From the NCBI RefSeq assembly GCF_015256775.1, contig NZ_JABZLM010000006.1: a stretch of DNA of 64,000 nucleotides; one strand, written 5' to 3'. Below the pieces are notes generated by a model. That model saw only the letters and a list, made by a program, of their open reading frames with translations, had not been told where the DNA came from and ran no database searches. The translations under genes and the position numbers were made by a program. Source of the DNA: Solobacterium sp. (GTDB lineage Bacteria > Bacillota_I > Bacilli_A > Erysipelotrichales > Erysipelotrichaceae). Below, piece by piece: positions 1 through 56,571 of the stretch (the stretch's first letter is position 1; each line of letters begins with the position of its first letter).

Positions 1-218
1 TCATTGAGTAAGATTTCCCCTTGCAGTGTTCCTTCGACAACACGAGGAATCAGCCCATTGAGACATTTCAGGAATGTAGATTTACCACTACCACTATTAC
101 CAGTCACCAAAATGATTTCACCTGGCTGTAGCGCAAAATGAACATCTTGAATTCCTTCCGAACTATCTTGATATTGGAAGGAAATGTTCTTACCCTCTAC
201 GACATACGAACCCATAAC
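1..218 (-). CDS. ABC-type ATPase, EcfA/CbiO-like (N-terminal fragment; gene continues past the window start)
   Basis: Reverse-strand translation from an ATG at about 216-218 reads MGSYVVEGKNISFQYQDSSEGIQDV...GEIILVTGNSGSGKST. It contains a Walker A P-loop. It overlaps the stop of the upstream EcfT-like gene. Confidence 0.6.
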
Positions 219-880
219 ATCTCTCCCACCAGTCCTAAGCAAATCGCAACTGTAACAAGCACATCCTTCATTCCAAAGCGAATATTGTAATATGACGTCC
301 TTCTTCCCATGCAATCAATTCCCTTGCACAGTCCTGCAGATGTTAATTCATCTGCTAAAATCAAACAACGAAATAATTGTGGAACTACAAAATATCCAAA
401 ACTCTTTACGATACTTTTCGTTTCAAAACGAATCCCACGCAGACGCATCGATTCATTGATATATCGTAATTCTCGAAAGAATGTTGGTATATATCGTAAC
501 GTAATACTTAACGCTATAATGAACGCTCTTGGTACATGAATACTCTGTAAAGCAGAAATTACCTCAGATGGTTGATAATCATACATCAAGATAAGCGCCA
601 CAATATATGTTGGCATCAATCGAACAATCATCATGAATAACATCGAAACAAACTGCACTACCTCAACATTACTCAACATCAAAAGCTGTTGTCCTAAATA
701 GAATAAAATTGTAATTCCGATAGCTTTACATAATCTTTTATATTTCTTCATGTAAAGCAAAAACAAACTACTGACAATAAAGAAATATAAAGGAATCCAT
801 CTATCATGTACAAACATTAAAATACATGGAATCAATATATTATAGAAAATCAAAACAAGCGGATTAATACGGTATCTCAC
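197..880 (-). CDS. ecfT: ECF transporter transmembrane T component (EcfT/CbiQ family)
   Basis: 227-aa polytopic membrane protein. Its size and hydrophobic pattern are typical of CbiQ/EcfT. It is immediately followed by an ABC ATPase gene in T-then-A order. Confidence 0.6.
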   Translation of the reverse strand: MRYRINPLVLIFYNILIPCILMFVHDRWIPLYFFIVSSLFLLYMKKYKRLCKAIGITILFYLGQQLLMLSNVEVVQFVSMLFMMIVRLMPTYIVALILMYDYQPSEVISALQSIHVPRAFIIALSITLRYIPTFFRELRYINESMRLRGIRFETKSIVKSFGYFVVPQLFRCLILADELTSAGLCKGIDCMGRRTSYYNIRFGMKDVLVTVAICLGLVGEMLWVRMS

Positions 881-989
881 ATTGCCCTCTTTCTAAAGTT
901 AGTTCATATTAACTAACCGAATTATACGCTCATGTGTTTCTTCTTGCAAGAATTGCGTTAATAAATTAACAAAGGTTAGATAAGAATAT

Positions 990-1958
990 CTAACCCTGTA
1001 AAATCGATTGTAATGCTTGTTCTAAAACAGCTACTGTCATCGTTGATTTTTCTAACCACGCATTCATCTGTTCAGTATTTTTTGTGTCAATGATTTCCTG
1101 TATATATAGGAATTCATTTTTCATTGGATCTTCCTCTACAACAACATCAATTTCTTCCGTAAGATTTGTCAGACGATCATGTCGCTCTCCATATCTTACA
1201 TATCCCGGTCTTTCAGGATAGACGATTGTACCATCTTCTGCTTGAATTATTACAAATGGATCAGACGTTGAATCTTTCGCAGCAGTACATACCGCTTGAA
1301 AGTCTGGATACTCCATAATCAATATACCTGATGTATCTACACCATTTTCTGCTAGGTTTGGATAATACTGTACCTTCTTTGGCAAACCAAATAAACCAAC
1401 AACAAAATGGATGTTATATACATTTAAATCCATAAGTGCTCCACCACCATGTGCTTTGTCAAAGGTTGGTGTAATGATACCCCTTCTAAATTCATCATAA
1501 CGACTAGAGTACTTGCTAAAGTTGGCTTGTATGAGTTTGATTTTTCCAATCTTTACTATTTCATCTTTTAGATGTTCATAGTTTTTACTGTATCGAGAAA
1601 GGATTGCTTCAAATAACATGCATTCATGTTCTAGTGCTAAAGCATGCAGTTCTTTAGCTTCGGCAGTAGATATAGTAAAAGGCTTTTCTACGATAACATG
1701 TTTTCTTGCAAGGATTGCATCCTTTGCGTATTGGTAATGTAAAGCATTCGTTAAACCAATATAGACAGTATCAAATGAATCATCATCTAGAAATGCTTGA
1801 TAATCTGTGTATTGATTTTGTATCTGATATTTCTCAACAATTGGTTTCCCCTTTGCTTCATTGCGACACCATAACGCTGTTACTTCAATCTCAGCACGTA
1901 ACATCGCTTCAATTGCGATAGGGACTATCATTCCATTTCCGACAATACCAACTTTCAT
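990..1958 (-). CDS. Gfo/Idh/MocA family NAD(P)-dependent oxidoreductase
   Basis: N-terminal Rossmann motif MKVGIVGNGMIVP, then an EKP motif (VIVEKPF) typical of the Gfo/Idh/MocA fold. 322 aa. Confidence 0.75.
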   Translation of the reverse strand: MKVGIVGNGMIVPIAIEAMLRAEIEVTALWCRNEAKGKPIVEKYQIQNQYTDYQAFLDDDSFDTVYIGLTNALHYQYAKDAILARKHVIVEKPFTISTAEAKELHALALEHECMLFEAILSRYSKNYEHLKDEIVKIGKIKLIQANFSKYSSRYDEFRRGIITPTFDKAHGGGALMDLNVYNIHFVVGLFGLPKKVQYYPNLAENGVDTSGILIMEYPDFQAVCTAAKDSTSDPFVIIQAEDGTIVYPERPGYVRYGERHDRLTNLTEEIDVVVEEDPMKNEFLYIQEIIDTKNTEQMNAWLEKSTMTVAVLEQALQSILQG

Positions 1959-1972
1959 AGAATTTTCTCCCT

Positions 1973-2803
1973 TTAGTCGATTAGTCCAAAGTGCTTGAAT
2001 GCATGGTAAATGCCATCATCCAAAATATCTTTAGTAACATAATCCGCAATCATCTTAACACTCTCTGACCCGTTTCCCATCGCAACGGAAGTTCCACAAT
2101 AGGACAACATCGGAATATCATTTCCACTATCGCCAATACCTATCGCATCACTGCGATCAGCACAGAAATGTTCTAGAACTTTCTCAATGCCAGTTCCCTT
2201 ATTGATATCTTTATTGGTAATTTCTGCCCCATAGAATTTTTTGATAGGGTCTTCGATGACACGGGTGAGGATATATTGACTGTGTAGAGCTTTTTCTAAC
2301 TGGTCAAATTCATGTCCATCTTCGCTGTATACACAGATTTTGTATATTTCATCATCTTCATGTGCCGCTTCTTCTGGATAGATACAGTTTGCCATTGCAT
2401 TCTGTACTTTTTCTTCGTAGCTTGCATTCGGTAGCGAAAAGTATTTAAGCAGGAATTCATAACCTAATTCATTCCCATACGCCCCTGCATTTCCTTCTAA
2501 GCCATACCCTAGTTTCATACCATTAATCATATCTTTTAGATACTGTAATTCTTCTTTTGGAATTGGACTATCATAGATACATTTGCGATCGGCATAGACT
2601 TTCGCACCAGCCGCAAGGATATAACCATCAATATCATATTCTAGATATGTCACAATCTCAGCTAAGCTTCTTCCTGTACATAAGAATACTTTATGACCAT
2701 TCTGTCTTGCTTTATGAATTGCACGTAAAGCACTCTCAGGTGTTTCATTGGTTGTTGGACTATATAAGGTGCCATCAATATCTAGAAATATATATTTTGT
2801 CAT
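1973..2803 (-). CDS. Cof-type HAD-IIB family phosphatase
   Basis: HAD motif I FLDIDGTL near the N-terminus and motif IV GDSGNDIPM near the C-terminus. Start chosen at MTKYIF because GGAGG lies 8 nt upstream. The longer ORF begins at 2854. Confidence 0.75.
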   Translation of the reverse strand: MTKYIFLDIDGTLYSPTTNETPESALRAIHKARQNGHKVFLCTGRSLAEIVTYLEYDIDGYILAAGAKVYADRKCIYDSPIPKEELQYLKDMINGMKLGYGLEGNAGAYGNELGYEFLLKYFSLPNASYEEKVQNAMANCIYPEEAAHEDDEIYKICVYSEDGHEFDQLEKALHSQYILTRVIEDPIKKFYGAEITNKDINKGTGIEKVLEHFCADRSDAIGIGDSGNDIPMLSYCGTSVAMGNGSESVKMIADYVTKDILDDGIYHAFKHFGLID

Positions 2804-2858
2804 ATTAAATCCTCCGTCTCTATTATAGCCAAAAAACAGACTGGCTTGTGCCAATCTG

Positions 2859-3560
2859 TTACATTCCTTGGATATTTGCTTTTTTTATTCTGCTCATTAG
2901 TACTGGAACCATCAATAAGCAGACAATCATCGTTACTAAGTTATACCAAAGATTATAACCTAGGGAGAACGTCCACGCTGGTAAGCTTCCAGCTGCAGTG
3001 CCCTCTGCCCAGAAATACGCACCGGAAATAACCGTAGAGAAGTACTTGATGATCATTACAATCACAATACCGAAATGACCTTTTGTGCTTGTTAGGAATA
3101 GGCCTAATGCAATGACCAAGGCTGCTAATACAATGCCAGCTACTAGAGCCATTAAATTCATACCGTAAGAGTAATATACAGCAGCACATGCAGATAAACC
3201 AATTAAAGATACCACAGTTAATACAATGGGTTTGCTTGCATGTTCAAAAGGCTTAAAGAGCGAAACCATTCCAACAATACTGATTGGTAGCACGTAGTCT
3301 AATAGAATCTGTATTGGTTGAACAAAATACATTGGAAAACCTAATACAATTGTTAGTAAGAATGAAGCTAGTCCACACAGAACTCCATACTTCCAACCAA
3401 GATGATACGATGCAATCATCAGTGGAATTAACTCCAGTTCAATAGATCCACCATTTGGCATCTGTAGGAAAGGTATCATATTTCCTACCATTTTTAGCGC
3501 TACATATAACGCCATGTAGATTGCCATGAACGCAATCGTTTTAATCTGATCGTTTTTCAT
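2859..3560 (-). CDS. ECF transporter S (substrate-specific) component, thiamine or thiamine-precursor family (ThiT/YkoE-like)
   Basis: Small polytopic membrane protein directly downstream of a TPP riboswitch. Start MKNDQIK with GGAGG 9 nt upstream. The track ORF extends to 3662 but that part overlaps the riboswitch. Confidence 0.55.
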   Translation of the reverse strand: MKNDQIKTIAFMAIYMALYVALKMVGNMIPFLQMPNGGSIELELIPLMIASYHLGWKYGVLCGLASFLLTIVLGFPMYFVQPIQILLDYVLPISIVGMVSLFKPFEHASKPIVLTVVSLIGLSACAAVYYSYGMNLMALVAGIVLAALVIALGLFLTSTKGHFGIVIVMIIKYFSTVISGAYFWAEGTAAGSLPAWTFSLGYNLWYNLVTMIVCLLMVPVLMSRIKKANIQGM

Positions 3561-3574
3561 AAAAAATACACCTC

Positions 3575-3680
3575 CATTTTGAAGGCGCAAGGAATTAAAA
3601 CCTGAACTCCCTACGCTAGCTTTACCTAGATCAGGTGATAAGGGTTTTTTCTCAGCATGCATGCACCCCTGTTCACGAGT
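3575..3680 (-). promoter_or_regulatory. TPP (thiamine pyrophosphate) riboswitch, THI element
   Basis: Minus-strand sequence reads GUGAACAGGGGUGC..GCUGAGA..ACCCUUAUCACCUGAUCUAGGUAAAGCUAGCGUAGGGAGUUCAG. It has the conserved GGGGUGC, CUGAGA and ACCUGAUCU(A/G)GxUAAUxCxAGCGUAGGGA blocks. P1 closes as UGAAC/GUUCA. Confidence 0.85.
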
Positions 3681-4082
3681 TTAATCATATCACTTTTCGA
3701 AACGAAAGAAAAAAGAATATTGCTTGGATGCCCCGTCCCTACAATATTCTTTATTATTTCGCATATTCCAGTGTAATTTGAGGAGGACACGGATATGCAT
3801 GGATTTTTTCCGGACATTATGTCAATTAGATTTTTTTACAAGTCTGCCCATGACTTGTAAATAAAGGGTTCCGGAACACGCAGGTACTGATGCATAAAGG
3901 AGTGTGTGATGGAAAGAGTGAGACATCAGTTAGCCTGTGCTAACTGTATGTTAGCAAACACTAACCCTCCTGTCAACAAAGATTATCATTTTTTTGTAAA
4001 AATATTCCCAATTTTGTTTCAAATCTCAAACTCGTTACAAAAAGACAACATATGTTACGCCACATGTTGCCCTATATCTTTA

Positions 4083-5306
4083 TTAATCGCTCATCTTTTG
4101 AATGAGTTCATATTGGTCGCTTGTCATTCTAAAGTGTGCGATTCCACAGTTTGGAACGGTATTGATACCCAGTTCGGAGGCTTCTTGGAAGACATCCTCC
4201 TTCTTTAATCCAAATAAGGCTTCTAGACATACAAGATAGAAGTCTCCGTGAGAAACCAGTAATACTTTATCTTGATCTTGATGCGTATCATAAATTTCAT
4301 GAAAGATAGAATTCATGCGCTTTGTGACATCGTCATACTCCTCGCCACCAACATCACCATAGTGCGTATCCATAAAACGTTTGCCACTAGGATCTGCCTC
4401 TTTGAATGTCATACCTTCAAGGTCACCATAACTAACTTCACAAATCTTCTTTGTATAGACACTATTTCCTGGGTGATATTGAGCCATGATATCTGCAGTA
4501 TCACGCGCTCTTTCCGCTGTTGAAACATAAATCATAGAAAAAGGTATCTCCTTTAACTTCTCAGCTGCCTCTTGTGCTTCTTGAATTCCCTTTTTAGTTA
4601 AAGGACTATCACATCTGCCCTGCATACGCTCTTGGACATTAAATCTTGTTTCACCATGGCGCATCAAATAAATATCAATTGTCTTTGGATGATAGATTTG
4701 ACGATATTCATTCACATTAATTGGCTCTTGGTCTAAAAAGAACTTTCCATCCTTATAATGGAATATCAACATGCCTGTATTCGGCATGAGCCAACGATCT
4801 TGTGCCTTACAGCGTTCTACATAATCATCTAGATTCATTCCAAACAGGATTTCTAAAATACGAACCGCATACGCACCATGACCAACCAATAAAATTGTAT
4901 CGCCATCACTAGATTCCTCAACGATGTTCTGCATTGTTGTACGAACTCTTTGTGCAAATCCTGAATTTGTTTCCCCACCTTCTGATGACCAATCATCAAA
5001 GAACGGAGAGTCCAAGACCTCTTCCTTACGTGCACCATCTAAAGAGCCAAAAGAGAACTCCTTCAGGCCTTTGGTAAGGATTAATGGAATATCATGATAC
5101 TTACAGATTTCTTTTGCTGTATCCCAAGCTCTTTCAGAGGTAGAACAATATGCTCGATTAAACGGCACATTTCTGAGTGCGGACGCAACGTTTTCTGCCT
5201 GTTGAATACCCTCATCTAACAGCGGACTATCACACCAACCCTGCATACGCCCTTTCAGGTTAAATAAGGTTTTTCCGTGTCTAACAAAGTAAAATTTCAA
5301 TTCCAT
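4083..5306 (-). CDS. tandem histidine phosphatase (phosphoglycerate-mutase family) fusion protein
   Basis: Two complete RHG-motif domains in one 407-aa ORF: FYFVRHGKTLFN...HG and IYLMRHGETRFN...SHG. Confidence 0.7.
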   Translation of the reverse strand: MELKFYFVRHGKTLFNLKGRMQGWCDSPLLDEGIQQAENVASALRNVPFNRAYCSTSERAWDTAKEICKYHDIPLILTKGLKEFSFGSLDGARKEEVLDSPFFDDWSSEGGETNSGFAQRVRTTMQNIVEESSDGDTILLVGHGAYAVRILEILFGMNLDDYVERCKAQDRWLMPNTGMLIFHYKDGKFFLDQEPINVNEYRQIYHPKTIDIYLMRHGETRFNVQERMQGRCDSPLTKKGIQEAQEAAEKLKEIPFSMIYVSTAERARDTADIMAQYHPGNSVYTKKICEVSYGDLEGMTFKEADPSGKRFMDTHYGDVGGEEYDDVTKRMNSIFHEIYDTHQDQDKVLLVSHGDFYLVCLEALFGLKKEDVFQEASELGINTVPNCGIAHFRMTSDQYELIQKMSD

Positions 5307-8340: not shown

Positions 8341-8445
8341 TGTTTTTTTACTATTCTACATTTAAATTCATAAACTTTCCATTTATAATGATACGGTGGT
8401 TAGTTTGCCATAACTAACTTAAGCGAAAGGTATGACATAAATTCA

Positions 8446-9477
8446 ATGATAGCGAAGTCGAAACGTGATATTACATTTCCATATCTATTACTGTTCTTAT
8501 GTGTCTGTTTGGGGATATCCTTACTAGTTGCTGTATCTCTAGGTGCTGTAAAGATTCCTATCTTAGATACATATCAAATTATCGTCAATCATCTATTTCA
8601 TATTGGAAATGTAGATCATATTGCGAAATCTACGATTGCGATTGTATGGAATATGCGTAGTCCTCGTGTCATTATGGGACTCATCGCTGGTGCAGGTCTT
8701 GCGCTTTGTGGCAGTACGATGCAGACGACGGTTAATAATCCCATCTGTGAACCATATATATTGGGAATCTCCGCAGGTGCAACCTTCGGCGCAACTCTCC
8801 TAATTATCCTAGGACTTAAATCATTGATTGGTTTTGGTGCCTTCCTTGGCGCAATTATCGCAACGATTATCGTATTGGTGATTGCTTCTGCAGGTAAAAA
8901 GATTACGACCACGAGCTTGGTATTATCTGGTGTTGTTGTCAATGCACTATTTAGTGCCATTTCCAACTTCATCATCTCTATCGGCGCAAACTCCGACAAT
9001 ATGATGACCATTAAATTCTGGACCATGGGCTCTCTTGCCAGTTCCTCTTGGGGAAGTATTCTCCTTCCATTCATCATTATCTTAGTTGCCTGTCTCTTCT
9101 TTATGACACAACACCGCATCATGAATGCGATGTTAATGGGAGATGAAGTTGCTATCACTTTAGGTATTTCTCTTCAGAAATACAGAATGATTTACATGCT
9201 AGTCATTGCGTTTATCACCGGTATTCTCGTTTCAAGTTGTGGAATTATTGGCTTTGTGGGACTCATTACGCCACACATCGCAAGAGCTCTAGTCGGAACA
9301 AGTCACCAAAAGATGATTCCTATCTCGGTAATCCTAGGCAGTCTCTTTGTGATATGGGCAGACGTACTAGCACGTTGTCTTTTACCAAATGCAGAACTAC
9401 CAATTGGTATCTTTACAGCACTGGTTGGTGCACCATTCTTTGTCTACATTGTCATTAAGAATCAGAAAGGTGGTTAA
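8446..9477 (+). CDS. FecCD-family iron-siderophore ABC transporter permease
   Basis: 343-aa polytopic protein with FecCD-type features. Followed by an ATPase and a substrate-binding lipoprotein. Confidence 0.75.
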   Translation: MIAKSKRDITFPYLLLFLCVCLGISLLVAVSLGAVKIPILDTYQIIVNHLFHIGNVDHIAKSTIAIVWNMRSPRVIMGLIAGAGLALCGSTMQTTVNNPICEPYILGISAGATFGATLLIILGLKSLIGFGAFLGAIIATIIVLVIASAGKKITTTSLVLSGVVVNALFSAISNFIISIGANSDNMMTIKFWTMGSLASSSWGSILLPFIIILVACLFFMTQHRIMNAMLMGDEVAITLGISLQKYRMIYMLVIAFITGILVSSCGIIGFVGLITPHIARALVGTSHQKMIPISVILGSLFVIWADVLARCLLPNAELPIGIFTALVGAPFFVYIVIKNQKGG

Positions 9478-9479
9478 GT

Positions 9480-10235
9480 ATGGATCTTATTTGTAAAGAT
9501 GTATGTTATTCCATCAAGGATAAAAAAATTCTAGACCACGTTTCCATCAATGTAGATAAACAGCGCTTCGTTACCATTCTCGGCCCAAACGGCTGTGGAA
9601 AAACAACCCTGCTCAAGAACATCTACCGTGTTCTAAAAAGAGATTCTGGTGAGATTGTATTCAACGGCAAAAGCATTGATGATTTGCATCTAAGAGAAGC
9701 CGCAAAGAAAATTGCAGTCGTAGCACAGTTCAACGAAATCAATTTCGATTGCAGTGTTAAAGATATGGTTCTTCTTGGTCGAACACCACATATCCCGTTT
9801 ATGCAATCGGAAACACATAAAGACTACGAAATCGTTGAAGATGCTCTCCAGAAAGTTGGCATGCTCGATAAAGCAGACCGCTCCTACCTCTCATTATCCG
9901 GAGGAGAAAAACAACGTGTTGCCTTAGCCCGTGCTATTGCACAACAACCAACTCTACTTCTATTGGATGAGCCAACCAATCACTTAGATATCCGATATCA
10001 AATTGAAATCCTACAAATCGTAAAAGACTTAAACATCAATGTTCTCGCGGTATTACACGATATTCAACTTGCATGTCGCTATTCAGATTATATCTATCTG
10101 ATGAAACAAGGTACCATCCGCTATGAAGGAACACCACAAACAACAATCACAGAACAATCGATGCACGATGTATATGGCATCAACTGTAAACTAACATGGA
10201 CCCCTGATCAACAGGCATTAATAGAGTATATATGA
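9480..10235 (+). CDS. iron-siderophore ABC transporter ATP-binding protein
   Basis: Walker [13 protein letters not shown] signature LSGGEKQRV, and Walker B LLLLDEP. Confidence 0.85.
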
Positions 10236-10246
10236 AAGGAAAACTC

Positions 10247-11266
10247 ATGAAAAAATTATTAAACGCTACACTCGCTGCAGTATTATCATTCTCATTGATT
10301 GGTTGCAGCAACAAATCCACAACATCCCAAAAGGATAGCACAACAGCTACTACAGAAAACACAGCAGAAACAAAAGCAGAAGAAACAAAGTACCCAGTAA
10401 CAATCACAACTTACAACGCTGATGGTACAGAAATCCAACAAACTTTTGAAAAAGCTCCAGAACATGTTATTACAAACAACCTATCTGCCACAAAGATCTT
10501 AATCGATTTAGGTCTACAAGATAAGATTGTAGGTATGCTTGACCCAGATAACAAGGTTACCGACAGCTACGCTGAAGCAATCGAAAAGATTCCACACATT
10601 GGCGATAAGAAGACAGTATCTCAAGAAGTAGCACTCTCCTACAATCCAGATGCAATTATCGGTAGAAATATGATGTTCTCAGACAAGTCACTTGGAACTG
10701 TAGATACATGGAACCAAAATGGTATCAGCATCTACTCCCAAAAGGCATCTGTTTCTAACACAGAACAAAGCTTAAACAACGTTATTGAAGACATCATCAA
10801 CATCGGTATCATCTTCAACGTACAAGAAAAAGCAAACGCATACGCTAAGAAGCTACAAGAAAGAGTTGATTCTGTACTATCCGCAAATAAAAATCAACCA
10901 AAGGAACTAAAGAATGCACTCATCATGTGTGCATACAATGATGAAACATATGGCGCATACAAGTCAGCACTACAAGAAAGTGTTCTAAATGTATTTGGTT
11001 ACACGAATATCGCAACAGGAACTTCTGGATTAACTCTAGAAAACTTAGTTACATCTGCACCAGAATTCATCATCTACGTTACAAGCGACCGCAATCAGAA
11101 GTTAGATGCTAACGCCGTAGAACTCATGAAGAATAACGCAGTACTCGCTGATGTTCCAGCAATCAAGAACGGTAAGATTCTAACAATCTCATATGATGAA
11201 TTAATGGATTACGGTCCATCTGTGATTGATGCACTTGAAACAATCAACTCATTCCTAAAGAAATAA
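10247..11266 (+). CDS. siderophore-type ABC substrate-binding lipoprotein
   Basis: Signal peptide with lipobox SLIGCSN. Cluster-A/FecB-like size. Start chosen at the second ATG, which has an AAAGGA RBS. Confidence 0.65.
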   Translation: MKKLLNATLAAVLSFSLIGCSNKSTTSQKDSTTATTENTAETKAEETKYPVTITTYNADGTEIQQTFEKAPEHVITNNLSATKILIDLGLQDKIVGMLDPDNKVTDSYAEAIEKIPHIGDKKTVSQEVALSYNPDAIIGRNMMFSDKSLGTVDTWNQNGISIYSQKASVSNTEQSLNNVIEDIINIGIIFNVQEKANAYAKKLQERVDSVLSANKNQPKELKNALIMCAYNDETYGAYKSALQESVLNVFGYTNIATGTSGLTLENLVTSAPEFIIYVTSDRNQKLDANAVELMKNNAVLADVPAIKNGKILTISYDELMDYGPSVIDALETINSFLKK

Positions 11267-11267
11267 A

Positions 11268-11918
11268 ATGATGATTCAAACAAAACTATCACTACCACAA
11301 CACTACGATCCAAATTACGCATATCCACTCATTCTATGCAATGATGGTAACCTACAACATCTATACACTTGCAAAGAAAAAGCAATTCTCGTAGGACTAC
11401 TACCAGAAAATAGATTAAAAGATTATACGCCATGGCAAGCAGAAGCTACCAGAGCAGGCGCAGAAAACTTTGGTGGACAAGCAGATGAATATCACAATGA
11501 ACTATTTAATAACGTTCTACCAGAACTTCAAAGTAGATATTCTATCGATACAAACAAAATCATTTATGGTGGCTATTCCTTAGGAGGATTAGCCGCCGTA
11601 TATAGTTTGTATCGAACAAACATTCCTAGTGCAGTATTCTCTATCTGTGGTTCCTTCTGGTATCCAGAGTTCGTTAACTTCTGCAAAGAGAATCCCGTTA
11701 TCAATCAAAACGCTAGCGTTTACCTATGTAACGGCAAAACAGAAGGTATTCATCACCACAATATTCTAGATACTGCTCCACAATGTGCAGAAGAGATCCA
11801 CGCTTTGATTCATAAAGAGTTAAATGGCATTACTTCTGTATTCGATGAATTTGGACATCATGAAAATCTAACCAATCGTTATAAAGCTCTATCCGATTGG
11901 TTAGAGAAACAACTATAA
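11268..11918 (+). CDS. alpha/beta-hydrolase esterase (enterochelin-esterase-like)
   Basis: Nucleophile elbow GYSLGG and the last gene of the siderophore uptake operon, as in Fes/IroE-type arrangements. Confidence 0.55.
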   Translation: MMIQTKLSLPQHYDPNYAYPLILCNDGNLQHLYTCKEKAILVGLLPENRLKDYTPWQAEATRAGAENFGGQADEYHNELFNNVLPELQSRYSIDTNKIIYGGYSLGGLAAVYSLYRTNIPSAVFSICGSFWYPEFVNFCKENPVINQNASVYLCNGKTEGIHHHNILDTAPQCAEEIHALIHKELNGITSVFDEFGHHENLTNRYKALSDWLEKQL

Positions 11919-40274: not shown

Positions 40275-40786
40275 TTATGGTTAAACAATCAGCTTAATAA
40301 CTATGCACTTTTCGGCACTGATAAGACCACAGAGTAAGACATACATCTTTCCTACCATCTACCTGCCTCAATTGAGATTCGTGACCCTCGAACCAGCAGT
40401 TTGCCTAGTTCTTTCTTCAGATTCCACCTCACGATGGAAATCCTTGAATTCGGCTCAACCTTAGGGACTACATTCCTTGGTTAGAGGTACCTTTCAACCT
40501 CCAAGATATATACCATGTCTGGCACACCAAGAAAAAACCTACAGAATCTTTCGATATACGCAAAGAAAATGCATGTGTATAAAAAGTGACCGAACCGATG
40601 GAGGTTCAAAGACATTGATGCATGTATTCGACAGATTTGAGGATACGGATTTGATTACAGAACTACTGGAAGGTATGTATACGGAATTGCACGAAAAGAA
40701 ACCTATAAAATTCGTACGAATACTGTAGGGTAAGAAAAGACGTCTTTCTCTATACTAAAATATGCCGAACGAAAGAGGGAATCAAA

Positions 40787-55487: not shown

Positions 55488-55628
55488 GTTTAAATGTGTC
55501 TAACTTTCATTAAAAATGAAATATTTTCAGGTTAGTTAGTTCTAACATGCGAAAAAATCACAAACTTCTTTGAGCAAAGGTGTTGAATTCAAAACAAATC
55601 ATTCTATAATGATAATGGTTCTCAATAA

Positions 55629-56057
55629 GTGGTGATTATGAAAAGAAGACAGACTTATCAAAAACAGGAAATATTGAATATCATCCAAGGAGTTGGAACG
55701 CATATGACTGCGGAAGAAGTTAAGTCTGCTTTAGATCAAAAGGAGACCGGCATTGGTTTAGCGACTGTATATCGCAATCTCAATCTTCTCGTCCAAGAAG
55801 GTGTGATTCGTAAGTATACAGGTGAAGGCTACAACTTCTATGACGGTAACCCTGCTCCACACGATCACTTACGTTGCACAAAGTGCGGTAAGATGATTGA
55901 CCTTGGTGAAATGCCTTATGATTCTTGCCCAGATGAAAAGGTAGAAAAATTCACCGGTGGAAAAGTATTCAGTCATGTCACTATTTTTGAGGGAATTTGC
56001 AAAGATTGTCTAAATGAGGAGGACACAAGCAATGGAATTAAAGGGTTCAAAAACTGA
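55629..56057 (+). CDS. perR: Fur-family metalloregulator (PerR-like)
   Basis: HTH region, then HHDH and CxxC...CxxC (CTKCG...CKDC) metal sites. Adjacent to rubrerythrin. Confidence 0.7.
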
Positions 56058-56571
56058 AAAGAATTTAAATGATGCATTCGCTGGCGAGTCAATGGCTCGC
56101 AACAAGTACACTTTCTTCGCTGAGAAGGCTCGTGAAGAAGGTTACGAACAAATCGCAAACATCTTCTTAGAAACAGCACGTAACGAACAGGAACACGCTA
56201 AGCAGTGGTTCATCGCATTATGCGGTGGCGCTATCCCAACAACTCATGAATGCTTACAGATGGGTGCTGATGGTGAAAACTACGAGTGGACAGACATGTA
56301 CAAGAGAATGGCTGCAGAAGCTCGTGAAGAAGGATTCACACGTATCGCAGCTCAAATGGATATGGTAGCTAAGGTTGAAAAGGAACACGAAGAAAGATAC
56401 GAGAAGTTAAAGGCTAATGTCTTAAACTCACAAGTATTCGAAAAGGACGAGCCAGTAGTATGGCAGTGCGAAATCTGTGGTTACACAATTGAGTCCAAGA
56501 AGGCTCCTAAGATCTGCCCACTATGCAGCTACAAGGAAAGCTTCTTCGAAGTTAAGAAGGAAAATTACTAA
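56032..56571 (+). CDS. rbr: rubrerythrin
   Basis: Di-iron ExxH motifs (EQEH, EHEE) and a C-terminal rubredoxin-like CEICG...CPLC. Start at MELKGS with a GAGGAGG RBS. Confidence 0.85.

Follow-up and report, generated by a model that had tools for sequence, protein, structure and literature searches.

In Bacillus subtilis, yuaJ/thiT is also preceded by a THI-box, the thiamine pyrophosphate (TPP) riboswitch, and YkoEDC(F), a group-I energy-coupling factor (ECF) transporter of thiamine or hydroxymethylpyrimidine (HMP), is under THI-box control as well. In the thiT riboswitch of Lactococcus lactis, partial replacement of the U-stretch just before the AUG led to constitutive expression, so that the U-stretch is needed for regulation (PMC8862789). 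We have analysed a 64,000-nucleotide stretch of the Solobacterium sp. genome (RefSeq assembly GCF_015256775.1, contig NZ_JABZLM010000006.1), here called the window, near the start of which a THI element adjoins genes for an ECF S-component, a Cof-type HAD phosphatase, a Gfo/Idh/MocA oxidoreductase and an EcfT–EcfA module. The original prediction joined the first three of these genes in one operon under TPP control; all five genes do lie on one strand, as it said, here the minus strand. The genes of the region very probably fall into three, possibly four, separate transcription units that adjoin one another through descent, and do not make up one thiamine operon. The riboswitch is genuine but most likely controls the adjoining thiT alone, and the locus is of a known kind: a monocistronic TPP-riboswitch–thiT cassette, as in L. 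lactis.

The first unit would be a monocistronic cassette in which an extended −10 promoter and the TPP riboswitch precede thiT and a strong terminator closes it; transcription would stop at this terminator, which lies over the thiT stop codon. The second would be a conserved and tightly coupled pair, a sugar-phosphatase-like HAD-IIB gene and a Gfo/Idh/MocA sugar oxidoreductase gene, which in related Erysipelotrichaceae belongs to 6-phospho-beta-glucosidase/phosphotransferase system (PTS) clusters. The third would have its own promoter and code for a T-component, a fused AA' ATPase and an MptD-family S-component.

The aptamer (3591..3680, minus strand) matches the Rfam model RF00059 with 73.1 bits, above the gathering score of 54.3 (E 1.8e-12; model positions 1–105, not truncated), which bears out the description of the THI-box as unambiguous. 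It is the sole Rfam match between 800 and 4200, even at E ≤ 1; at this threshold the search gave no further riboswitch ahead of either the HAD gene or ecfT, and no THI element ahead of ecfT. The aptamer is of a compact form, with a P3 of 3 bp and no P3a. Labels such as L001 denote genomic loci compared across related genomes: the orthologous aptamers of L004, L008, L025, L032 and L033 score 67.7–74.2 bits with RF00059. The end of the aptamer is 30 nt from the thiT start codon, and the THI element likewise stands before thiT in five orthologous loci. A THI-box pattern match in L010 was rejected as a false positive, as it did not align with true THI boxes and was not confirmed by Rfam. A putative thiT promoter of the extended −10 type, TGaTATGAT, was read from the sequence at 3684..3692 (minus strand). 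The motif TGnTATAAT/TATGAT is kept in L001–L008, L025, L032 and L033 (alignment A2), and distant relatives have TGcTATAAT. The −10 element places the predicted transcription start on the 5' edge of the aptamer, at about 3677.

The expression platform (3561..3616, minus strand) was delimited by a terminator scan and by folding. A hairpin at 3589..3567, formed by UGCGCCUUC and GGAGGUGUA (−11.3 kcal/mol), holds the Shine–Dalgarno (SD) sequence GGAGG and is directly followed by U6 (3566..3561) and then by the AUG at 3560; it would therefore be both a terminator and a sequestor. In an alternative fold of the nascent RNA, GCGUAGGGAGUU (3616..3605) pairs with AAUUCCUUGCGC (3596..3585) in a 12-bp antiterminator, which uses up the 5' base of the terminator. 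The two computed structures have UGCGC in common and are mutually exclusive. The two-state platform is conserved in eight orthologous leaders. A G-to-A change in L008, L025 and L033 converts a G–U into an A–U pair, a better pair in both alternative helices, and U6–U7 stands directly 3' of the regulatory hairpin in all orthologues. At high TPP, the aptamer would be closed and UGCGCCUUC released to pair with GGAGGUGUA; transcription would end at the hairpin with its U6, seven bases short of the AUG, and the ribosome-binding site would be hidden. At low TPP, GCGUAGGGAGUU, the 3' part of the aptamer, would pair with AAUUCCUUGCGC and block the hairpin, so that thiT would be transcribed and translated. 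This is the most likely switching mechanism, judging from the folds, the conservation of the leaders and the likeness to L. lactis. With the SD sequence inside it and its end 7 nt from the AUG, the hairpin would also suit a riboswitch that acts purely by SD sequestration, with no transcriptional effect even on thiT. This seems unlikely, given the U6–U7 after the hairpin in all orthologues, the detection of the hairpin by the terminator scan and the constitutive expression that followed U-stretch replacement in L. lactis (PMC8862789). Transcriptional and translational effects on thiT probably both operate.

The gene under this control, thiT (2859..3560, minus strand), codes for a thiamine-type S-component of 233 amino acids (aa). 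Its start is the ATG at 3560 and not the first ATG of the open reading frame (ORF), at 3662, which overlaps the aptamer. The protein matches PF09515 (Thia_YuaJ) with 93 bits (gathering score 25.8), and other S-component families gave no match beyond the FolT family at 20.7 bits. The protein is a variant of ThiT: the score with the NCBIfam equivalog TIGR02357, 73.2 bits, is below the cut-off of 108.45, because the match is split by an insertion of about 48 residues. Relatives with 54–74% identity bear the NCBI name ThiT. The insertion is hydrophobic, covers about residues 107–158 (alignment A3) and is missing from the canonical relatives of 176–187 aa; it is predicted to add two transmembrane helices (H110–131 and H136–157) to the six-helix S-component core. 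The same insertion is carried by many Erysipelotrichaceae relatives of 232–237 aa.

Comparisons with known structures agree with this assignment. A single-sequence phmmer search of PDB sequences with ThiT found nothing; a profile of 26 ThiT sequences matches L. lactis ThiT (3RLB/4MES) at E 3e-12. The AlphaFold model has a pLDDT of 86.5, and the five best PDB folds, 4TKR, 4MUU and 3RLB among them, are all ThiT (target-normalized TM scores 0.65–0.75). The predicted thiamine-type S-component under the THI-box is supported. The residues of L. lactis ThiT that we take, from the literature on 3RLB, to contact thiamine are W34, E84, Y85, H125, G129, W133, Y146 and N151. In the profile alignment, six of these are kept or conservatively changed (E84 to D88, Y85 to Y89, G129 to G180, W133 to W184, Y146 to F198 and N151 to N203) and two are not (W34 corresponds to G and H125 to T176), the loop alignment being uncertain. 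Helix 1 carries an AxxxA motif, with A13 and A17 invariant, as S-components docking on shared ECF modules typically do. ThiT would import thiamine by means of an ECF energizing module.

An intrinsic terminator is found at the end of thiT (2831..2860, minus strand; terminator scan and fold). Its stem of 11 bp extends over the stop codon; the loop has 4 nt, and U6 follows. The hairpin (2860..2835) has an energy of −15.9 kcal/mol, stronger than that of the regulatory hairpin (−11.3), and the fold has a z score of −3.0 against shuffled sequence. Homologues support ATG 2803 as the start of the HAD gene, with GGAGG 8 nt upstream and the N-terminus MTKYIFLDIDGTL. The distance of 4 nt previously given between the S-component and HAD genes arose because the mechanical ORF started at an unlikely TTG (2854); with the start at 2803, the gap is 55 nt. 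The 14 nt between the HAD stop (1973) and the oxidoreductase start (1958) are correct. It was this over-extended ORF start that had masked the terminator.

Within Solobacterium, the pairing of the thiT terminator stem is kept by compensatory changes over 16 distinct intergenic variants. A terminator is present at the 3' end of thiT in 12 of the 13 thiT lineages examined, with different sequences or compensatory changes; at this position, L008, L025, L032, L033, L081, L088, L090, L092 and L093 have hairpins of unrelated sequence. The hairpins of all the lineages examined except L087 have energies of −10.3 to −17.6 kcal/mol, and each is followed by a U-run. A strong terminator, conserved in function across lineages, thus parts the S-component gene from those of the HAD protein and the oxidoreductase. 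The original prediction had itself named such an element as grounds against it, and transcription of the latter two genes together with thiT, under the control of TPP, is not supported. A TATAAT box at 2822..2827 (minus strand), 18 nt before the HAD start, may be a weak promoter of the HAD–oxidoreductase unit. All 15 Solobacterium-type intergenic variants and that of L008 have it unchanged, and L087 lacks it; no −35 element is recognizable with it, and the two-hexamer promoter scan does not report the box. The predicted hairpins and their conservation are results of the analysis; efficient termination and a promoter for the second unit are what these sequences suggest.

The HAD gene (1973..2803, minus strand) lies outside the TPP unit and codes for a Cof-type HAD-IIB phosphatase of 276 aa. 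Its score with TIGR00099, a model of a broad subfamily, is 179.7 bits (cut-off 137). With NF011705, the equivalog for the Escherichia coli HMP pyrophosphate (HMP-PP) phosphatase Cof, it reaches 32.9 bits, a tenfold miss of the cut-off of 336. Among solved structures, it is closest to that of the sugar-phosphate phosphatase BT4131 of Bacteroides thetaiotaomicron (1YMQ, 115.6 bits). The window protein shares with both enzymes the Cof-type HAD-IIB fold, the DxD within FLDIDGT and GDSGND, but it is far under the Cof equivalog and its best solved relative is BT4131. The argument from E. coli Cof to salvage of thiamine precursors is therefore not supported.

The paired oxidoreductase gene (990..1958, minus strand) codes for 322 aa with the domains PF01408 (83 bits) and PF22725 (40.7 bits). 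All 17 sequences of alignment A1 retain E91, K92 and P93 (the EKP motif), D177, Y181 and H184, and an invariant R32 after the second strand suggests that the enzyme is probably NADP-dependent. The nearest structures are 2HO5/4IQ0 (uncharacterized, from structural genomics), the dimeric dihydrodiol/D-xylose dehydrogenase 2O48 and the sugar 3-ketoreductase KijD10 (3RBV). The window protein shares with these sugar oxidoreductases a Rossmann N-domain, an EKP motif and the catalytic region D-x3-Y/H; it has no characterized orthologue, and its scores are far below the cut-offs of all equivalog models.

The surroundings of the oxidoreductase homologues were surveyed in 80 genomic loci, one per species, with neighbours identified by tblastn, ORF clustering and Pfam. 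The window proteins are 97% identical to metagenome proteins and 89–90% identical to those of S. moorei. Among the surveyed loci, the order TPP–thiT–HAD–oxidoreductase is confined to the Solobacterium lineage (L001–L006) and L008. At 48–55% oxidoreductase identity, a THI element (Rfam, within 8 kb) occurs in three of 27 loci (L025, L032 and L033), each time directly before thiT, and in L033 a minus-strand ORF is located between thiT and the oxidoreductase gene. At 40–47% identity, no THI element was found in 45 loci by tblastn and pattern scan, the only methods applied there. There are 15 loci in which the HAD–oxidoreductase pair occurs without thiT, often with a 4-nt overlap; these pairs are surrounded by genes for GH1 6-phospho-beta-glucosidase, GNAT and cupin proteins, PTS IIB/IIA and an 84-aa protein. 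Remoter oxidoreductase homologues adjoin epimerase, lactonase and esterase genes. In 22 of 34 informative loci, a HAD gene immediately precedes that of the oxidoreductase. Conversely, the gene 3' of thiT varies among seven sampled lineages: two have HSP20 there, three DUF402, one the oxidoreductase and one HAD–oxidoreductase. The TrkH/TrkA flank region is common to the window, L013 and L087, which indicates an inherited local gene order and not functional coupling. The survey thus gave no conserved co-occurrence of the oxidoreductase with THI elements, and its conserved partners are sugar genes; the thiamine role proposed for it is not supported. The pair would serve sugar or glycoside metabolism and not thiamine salvage, to judge from its families and neighbours.

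Two further features were noted in the surveyed loci. Between the oxidoreductase and GH1 genes of 13 related genomes within L009–L035 (e.g. L023, 9046–9300; L032, 9077–9331) there is a gene for an 84–87-aa protein (cluster F5), which has no Pfam or NCBIfam match and is absent from the window. ZMP/ZTP riboswitches (RF01750) are present in two related genomes, at L024 (10386–10466, 55.3 bits) and L029 (10270–10351, 49.7 bits); in both, the riboswitch lies beyond the oxidoreductase gene and precedes one of pyruvate formate-lyase-like type.

A thiT–HAD–oxidoreductase operon under TPP control, with a leaky or attenuator-like thiT terminator and with enzymes acting on thiamine precursors or breakdown products, would account for the common strand and short distances of all the genes and for the lack of a good −35 element before the HAD gene. 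It also agrees with the position of TPP–thiT directly 5' of the oxidoreductase or HAD–oxidoreductase genes in the Solobacterium lineage, L008, L025, L032 and L087, and with the weak hairpin that alone separates thiT from the HAD gene in L087. Such an operon is nevertheless decidedly improbable. The conserved strong terminator is followed by the invariant TATAAT, a THI element is missing from 24 of the 27 orthologue loci, an unrelated gene is downstream of thiT in five of the seven sampled lineages, and the ORF parting thiT from the oxidoreductase in L033 is on the opposite strand. Moreover, the HAD protein is no Cof orthologue and is closest to a sugar phosphatase, and full-text searches gave no relevant paper joining Gfo/Idh/MocA enzymes to thiamine riboswitches.

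The ECF genes follow the oxidoreductase gene and are separated from it by a terminator-like hairpin at 972..997 (minus strand; z −4.8, −12.5 kcal/mol), which is kept in seven Solobacterium loci and the stem of which is also a GTTAG...CTAAC palindrome (975–994). A promoter, TTGCAA-17-TATAAT, was identified by the promoter scan at 921..949 (minus strand); its hexamers are invariant in seven Solobacterium loci. It is followed by the palindrome GTTAGTT-N6-AACTAAC (898–917), a possible operator. The gene ecfT (197..880, minus strand; start GTG 880 or ATG 817) codes for a T-component of the CbiQ family (PF02361, 45.1 bits) and overlaps by 19 nt the gene of a fused double ECF ATPase, of which only the 5' end (1..215, minus strand; gene start 215) is included before it runs off the window start; the fused ATPase has 471 aa in relatives. 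In near-identical genomes (with the full gene in L001–L003 and L006), the ATPase gene is followed by a gene for a 193-aa MptD-family S-component (TIGR02185, 144 bits against a cut-off of 76.45; PF09605, 130 bits) and then by ABC exporter genes. With their own terminator and promoter, and with an MptD-family S-component beyond the window, ecfT and ecfA thus form another transporter. It is probably dedicated to a substrate other than thiamine and controlled by a DNA-binding repressor rather than by TPP.

The original prediction saw in these genes a group-I, YkoEDC-like module dedicated to the S-component under the THI-box. The module is indeed of the dedicated type, with the T gene before fused AA' ATPases, but it has a separate promoter and terminator and an MptD-family S-component. 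The proximity of the genes, their order and the fusion of the ATPases, all typical of dedicated modules, together with the lack of a shared ecfAA'T module in the window, would fit a role as energizer of ThiT. We consider this role very unlikely, since a terminator and a promoter intervene between the thiT side and ecfT, the module has its own S-component, which is not YkoE (PF09819), and no THI element precedes ecfT. Furthermore, L004, L008, L025 and L087, all of which keep TPP–thiT, have no T/AA' module behind the oxidoreductase gene, and ThiT itself retains the AxxxA motif of S-components that use shared modules.

Several observations weigh against the division into independent units with the riboswitch confined to thiT. 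The hairpin between thiT and the HAD gene in L087 is weak (−4.7 kcal/mol). Terminators leak and the HAD–oxidoreductase unit has a TATAAT without a −35 element; some TPP-dependent read-through is therefore conceivable, and part of its expression could follow TPP. The adjacency of thiT and the oxidoreductase gene exceeds pure chance: thiT-adjacent oxidoreductases, with or without the HAD protein, are found on three branches of a neighbour-joining tree, and also in L087. No shared ecfA–ecfA'–ecfT operon was detected by ABC motifs in the 64-kb window, so that ThiT could use the neighbouring T/AA' module. We also considered whether the thiT-adjacent oxidoreductases are one clade that arose in a single event; they are placed at three points of the tree, but with short internal branches, which gives no weight either way. 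That the thiT terminator is deliberately leaky and feeds the HAD–oxidoreductase pair, the recurrent adjacency marking a real link and a new step of thiamine salvage or detoxification (for example, dephosphorylation and oxidation or reduction of a thiamine-related alcohol or aldehyde would be such a step), is extremely improbable.

Upstream of the thiT promoter, there is a candidate small RNA gene that is not annotated (3709–3976, minus strand). Its TG-extended promoter is TTGACA-17-TAACAT (3976..3948); with the start predicted near 3941 and a terminator spanning 3751..3709, the RNA would have about 233 nt (3941..3709). Among Solobacterium species, whose flanking proteins are only 86–95% identical, a block of about 285 nt is 99–100% identical, and the preceding 40 nt are scrambled. 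Erysipelotrichaceae genomes and metagenomes yielded 47 distinct homologues; 21 of the 51 matches of the metagenome pattern scan were due to chance and were removed by nhmmer. No Rfam match was obtained at E ≤ 1. The RNA contains two invariant CU-rich motifs, CACUCUUUCC (3920..3911) and GUGUCCUCCUCAA (3790..3778), complementary to ribosome-binding sites (anti-Shine–Dalgarno-like), and a hairpin with a GGGCA(A/G)AC loop that shows compensatory changes in five of its seven pairs. A 34-codon ORF within it was rejected, being broken by a 1-nt deletion in L005. An antiterminator leader of RAT/BglG type for GH1 genes is less likely, as the downstream gene varies. Depending on the genome, a GH1 gene, opposite-strand genes or the thiT promoter follows, and the small RNA therefore seems to be a gene in its own right rather than a leader. 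Upstream of it, a gene at 4083–5306 (minus strand) codes for a 407-aa protein with two tandem histidine-phosphatase domains (PF00300); its orthologues in relatives have the same sugar-gene neighbourhood, often followed by two more Cof-type HAD genes.

The palindrome GTTAG-N(4-10)-CTAAC occurs at six sites in the window (898–917, 975–994, 3929–3944, 3950–3965, 8399–8418 and 55531–55546; pattern scan), against 0.22 expected, and none of 100 shuffles reached six. All the sites are intergenic. Two of them, GTTAGC-N4-GCTAAC, are within the promoter of the small RNA, and two flank the ECF promoter, one of these being the oxidoreductase terminator stem. The others precede a siderophore-type importer locus coding for FecCD, ABC, binding-protein and esterase components (8446–11918, 28 nt away) and genes for a Fur-family regulator, at 55638..56057, and rubrerythrin (55638–56571 in all, 92 nt away). 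The spacing is not uniform (6-4-6 and 7-6-7). A repressor that responds to metal or peroxide may use the palindrome as a common operator; the distribution of the sites suggests a shared repressor and a regulated small RNA, of which the iron-sparing sRNA IsrR of Staphylococcus aureus is a possible analogue. Elsewhere in the window, a match to group-II-D1D4-3 (RF02001) at 40339–40438 (minus strand; 57.6 bits, gathering score 32), with most of the internal model region missing, may be a fragment of a group II intron.

An operon that joined the oxidoreductase to the riboswitch would imply a new enzyme class in thiamine salvage, but the evidence points the other way. Before same-strand genes are added to a riboswitch regulon, terminators and the arrangement of orthologues elsewhere should be checked. 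The by-products of the analysis, the extremely conserved RNA gene of about 233 nt and the palindrome that four promoters, two iron-related ones among them, have in common, may outweigh its main finding.

Among known systems, B. subtilis YkoEDC(F) is comparable to the ECF unit in that a dedicated module of fused ATPases and a T-component adjoins an S-component gene; it differs in that the local S-component belongs to the MptD family (PF09605/TIGR02185) and not to YkoE, and no THI element precedes the module. The thiT cassette is unlike that of L. lactis in its compact aptamer, with the 3-bp P3 and no P3a, and in the insertion of about 48 residues with two extra predicted helices in ThiT, which is below the NCBIfam ThiT equivalog cut-off. 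In other respects it resembles the L. lactis RSthiT–thiT locus: the TPP aptamer is directly before thiT, the U-stretch just before the AUG is part of the terminator of a riboswitch that is OFF with thiamine (PMC8862789), and the S-component gene stands alone, apart from its energizing module.

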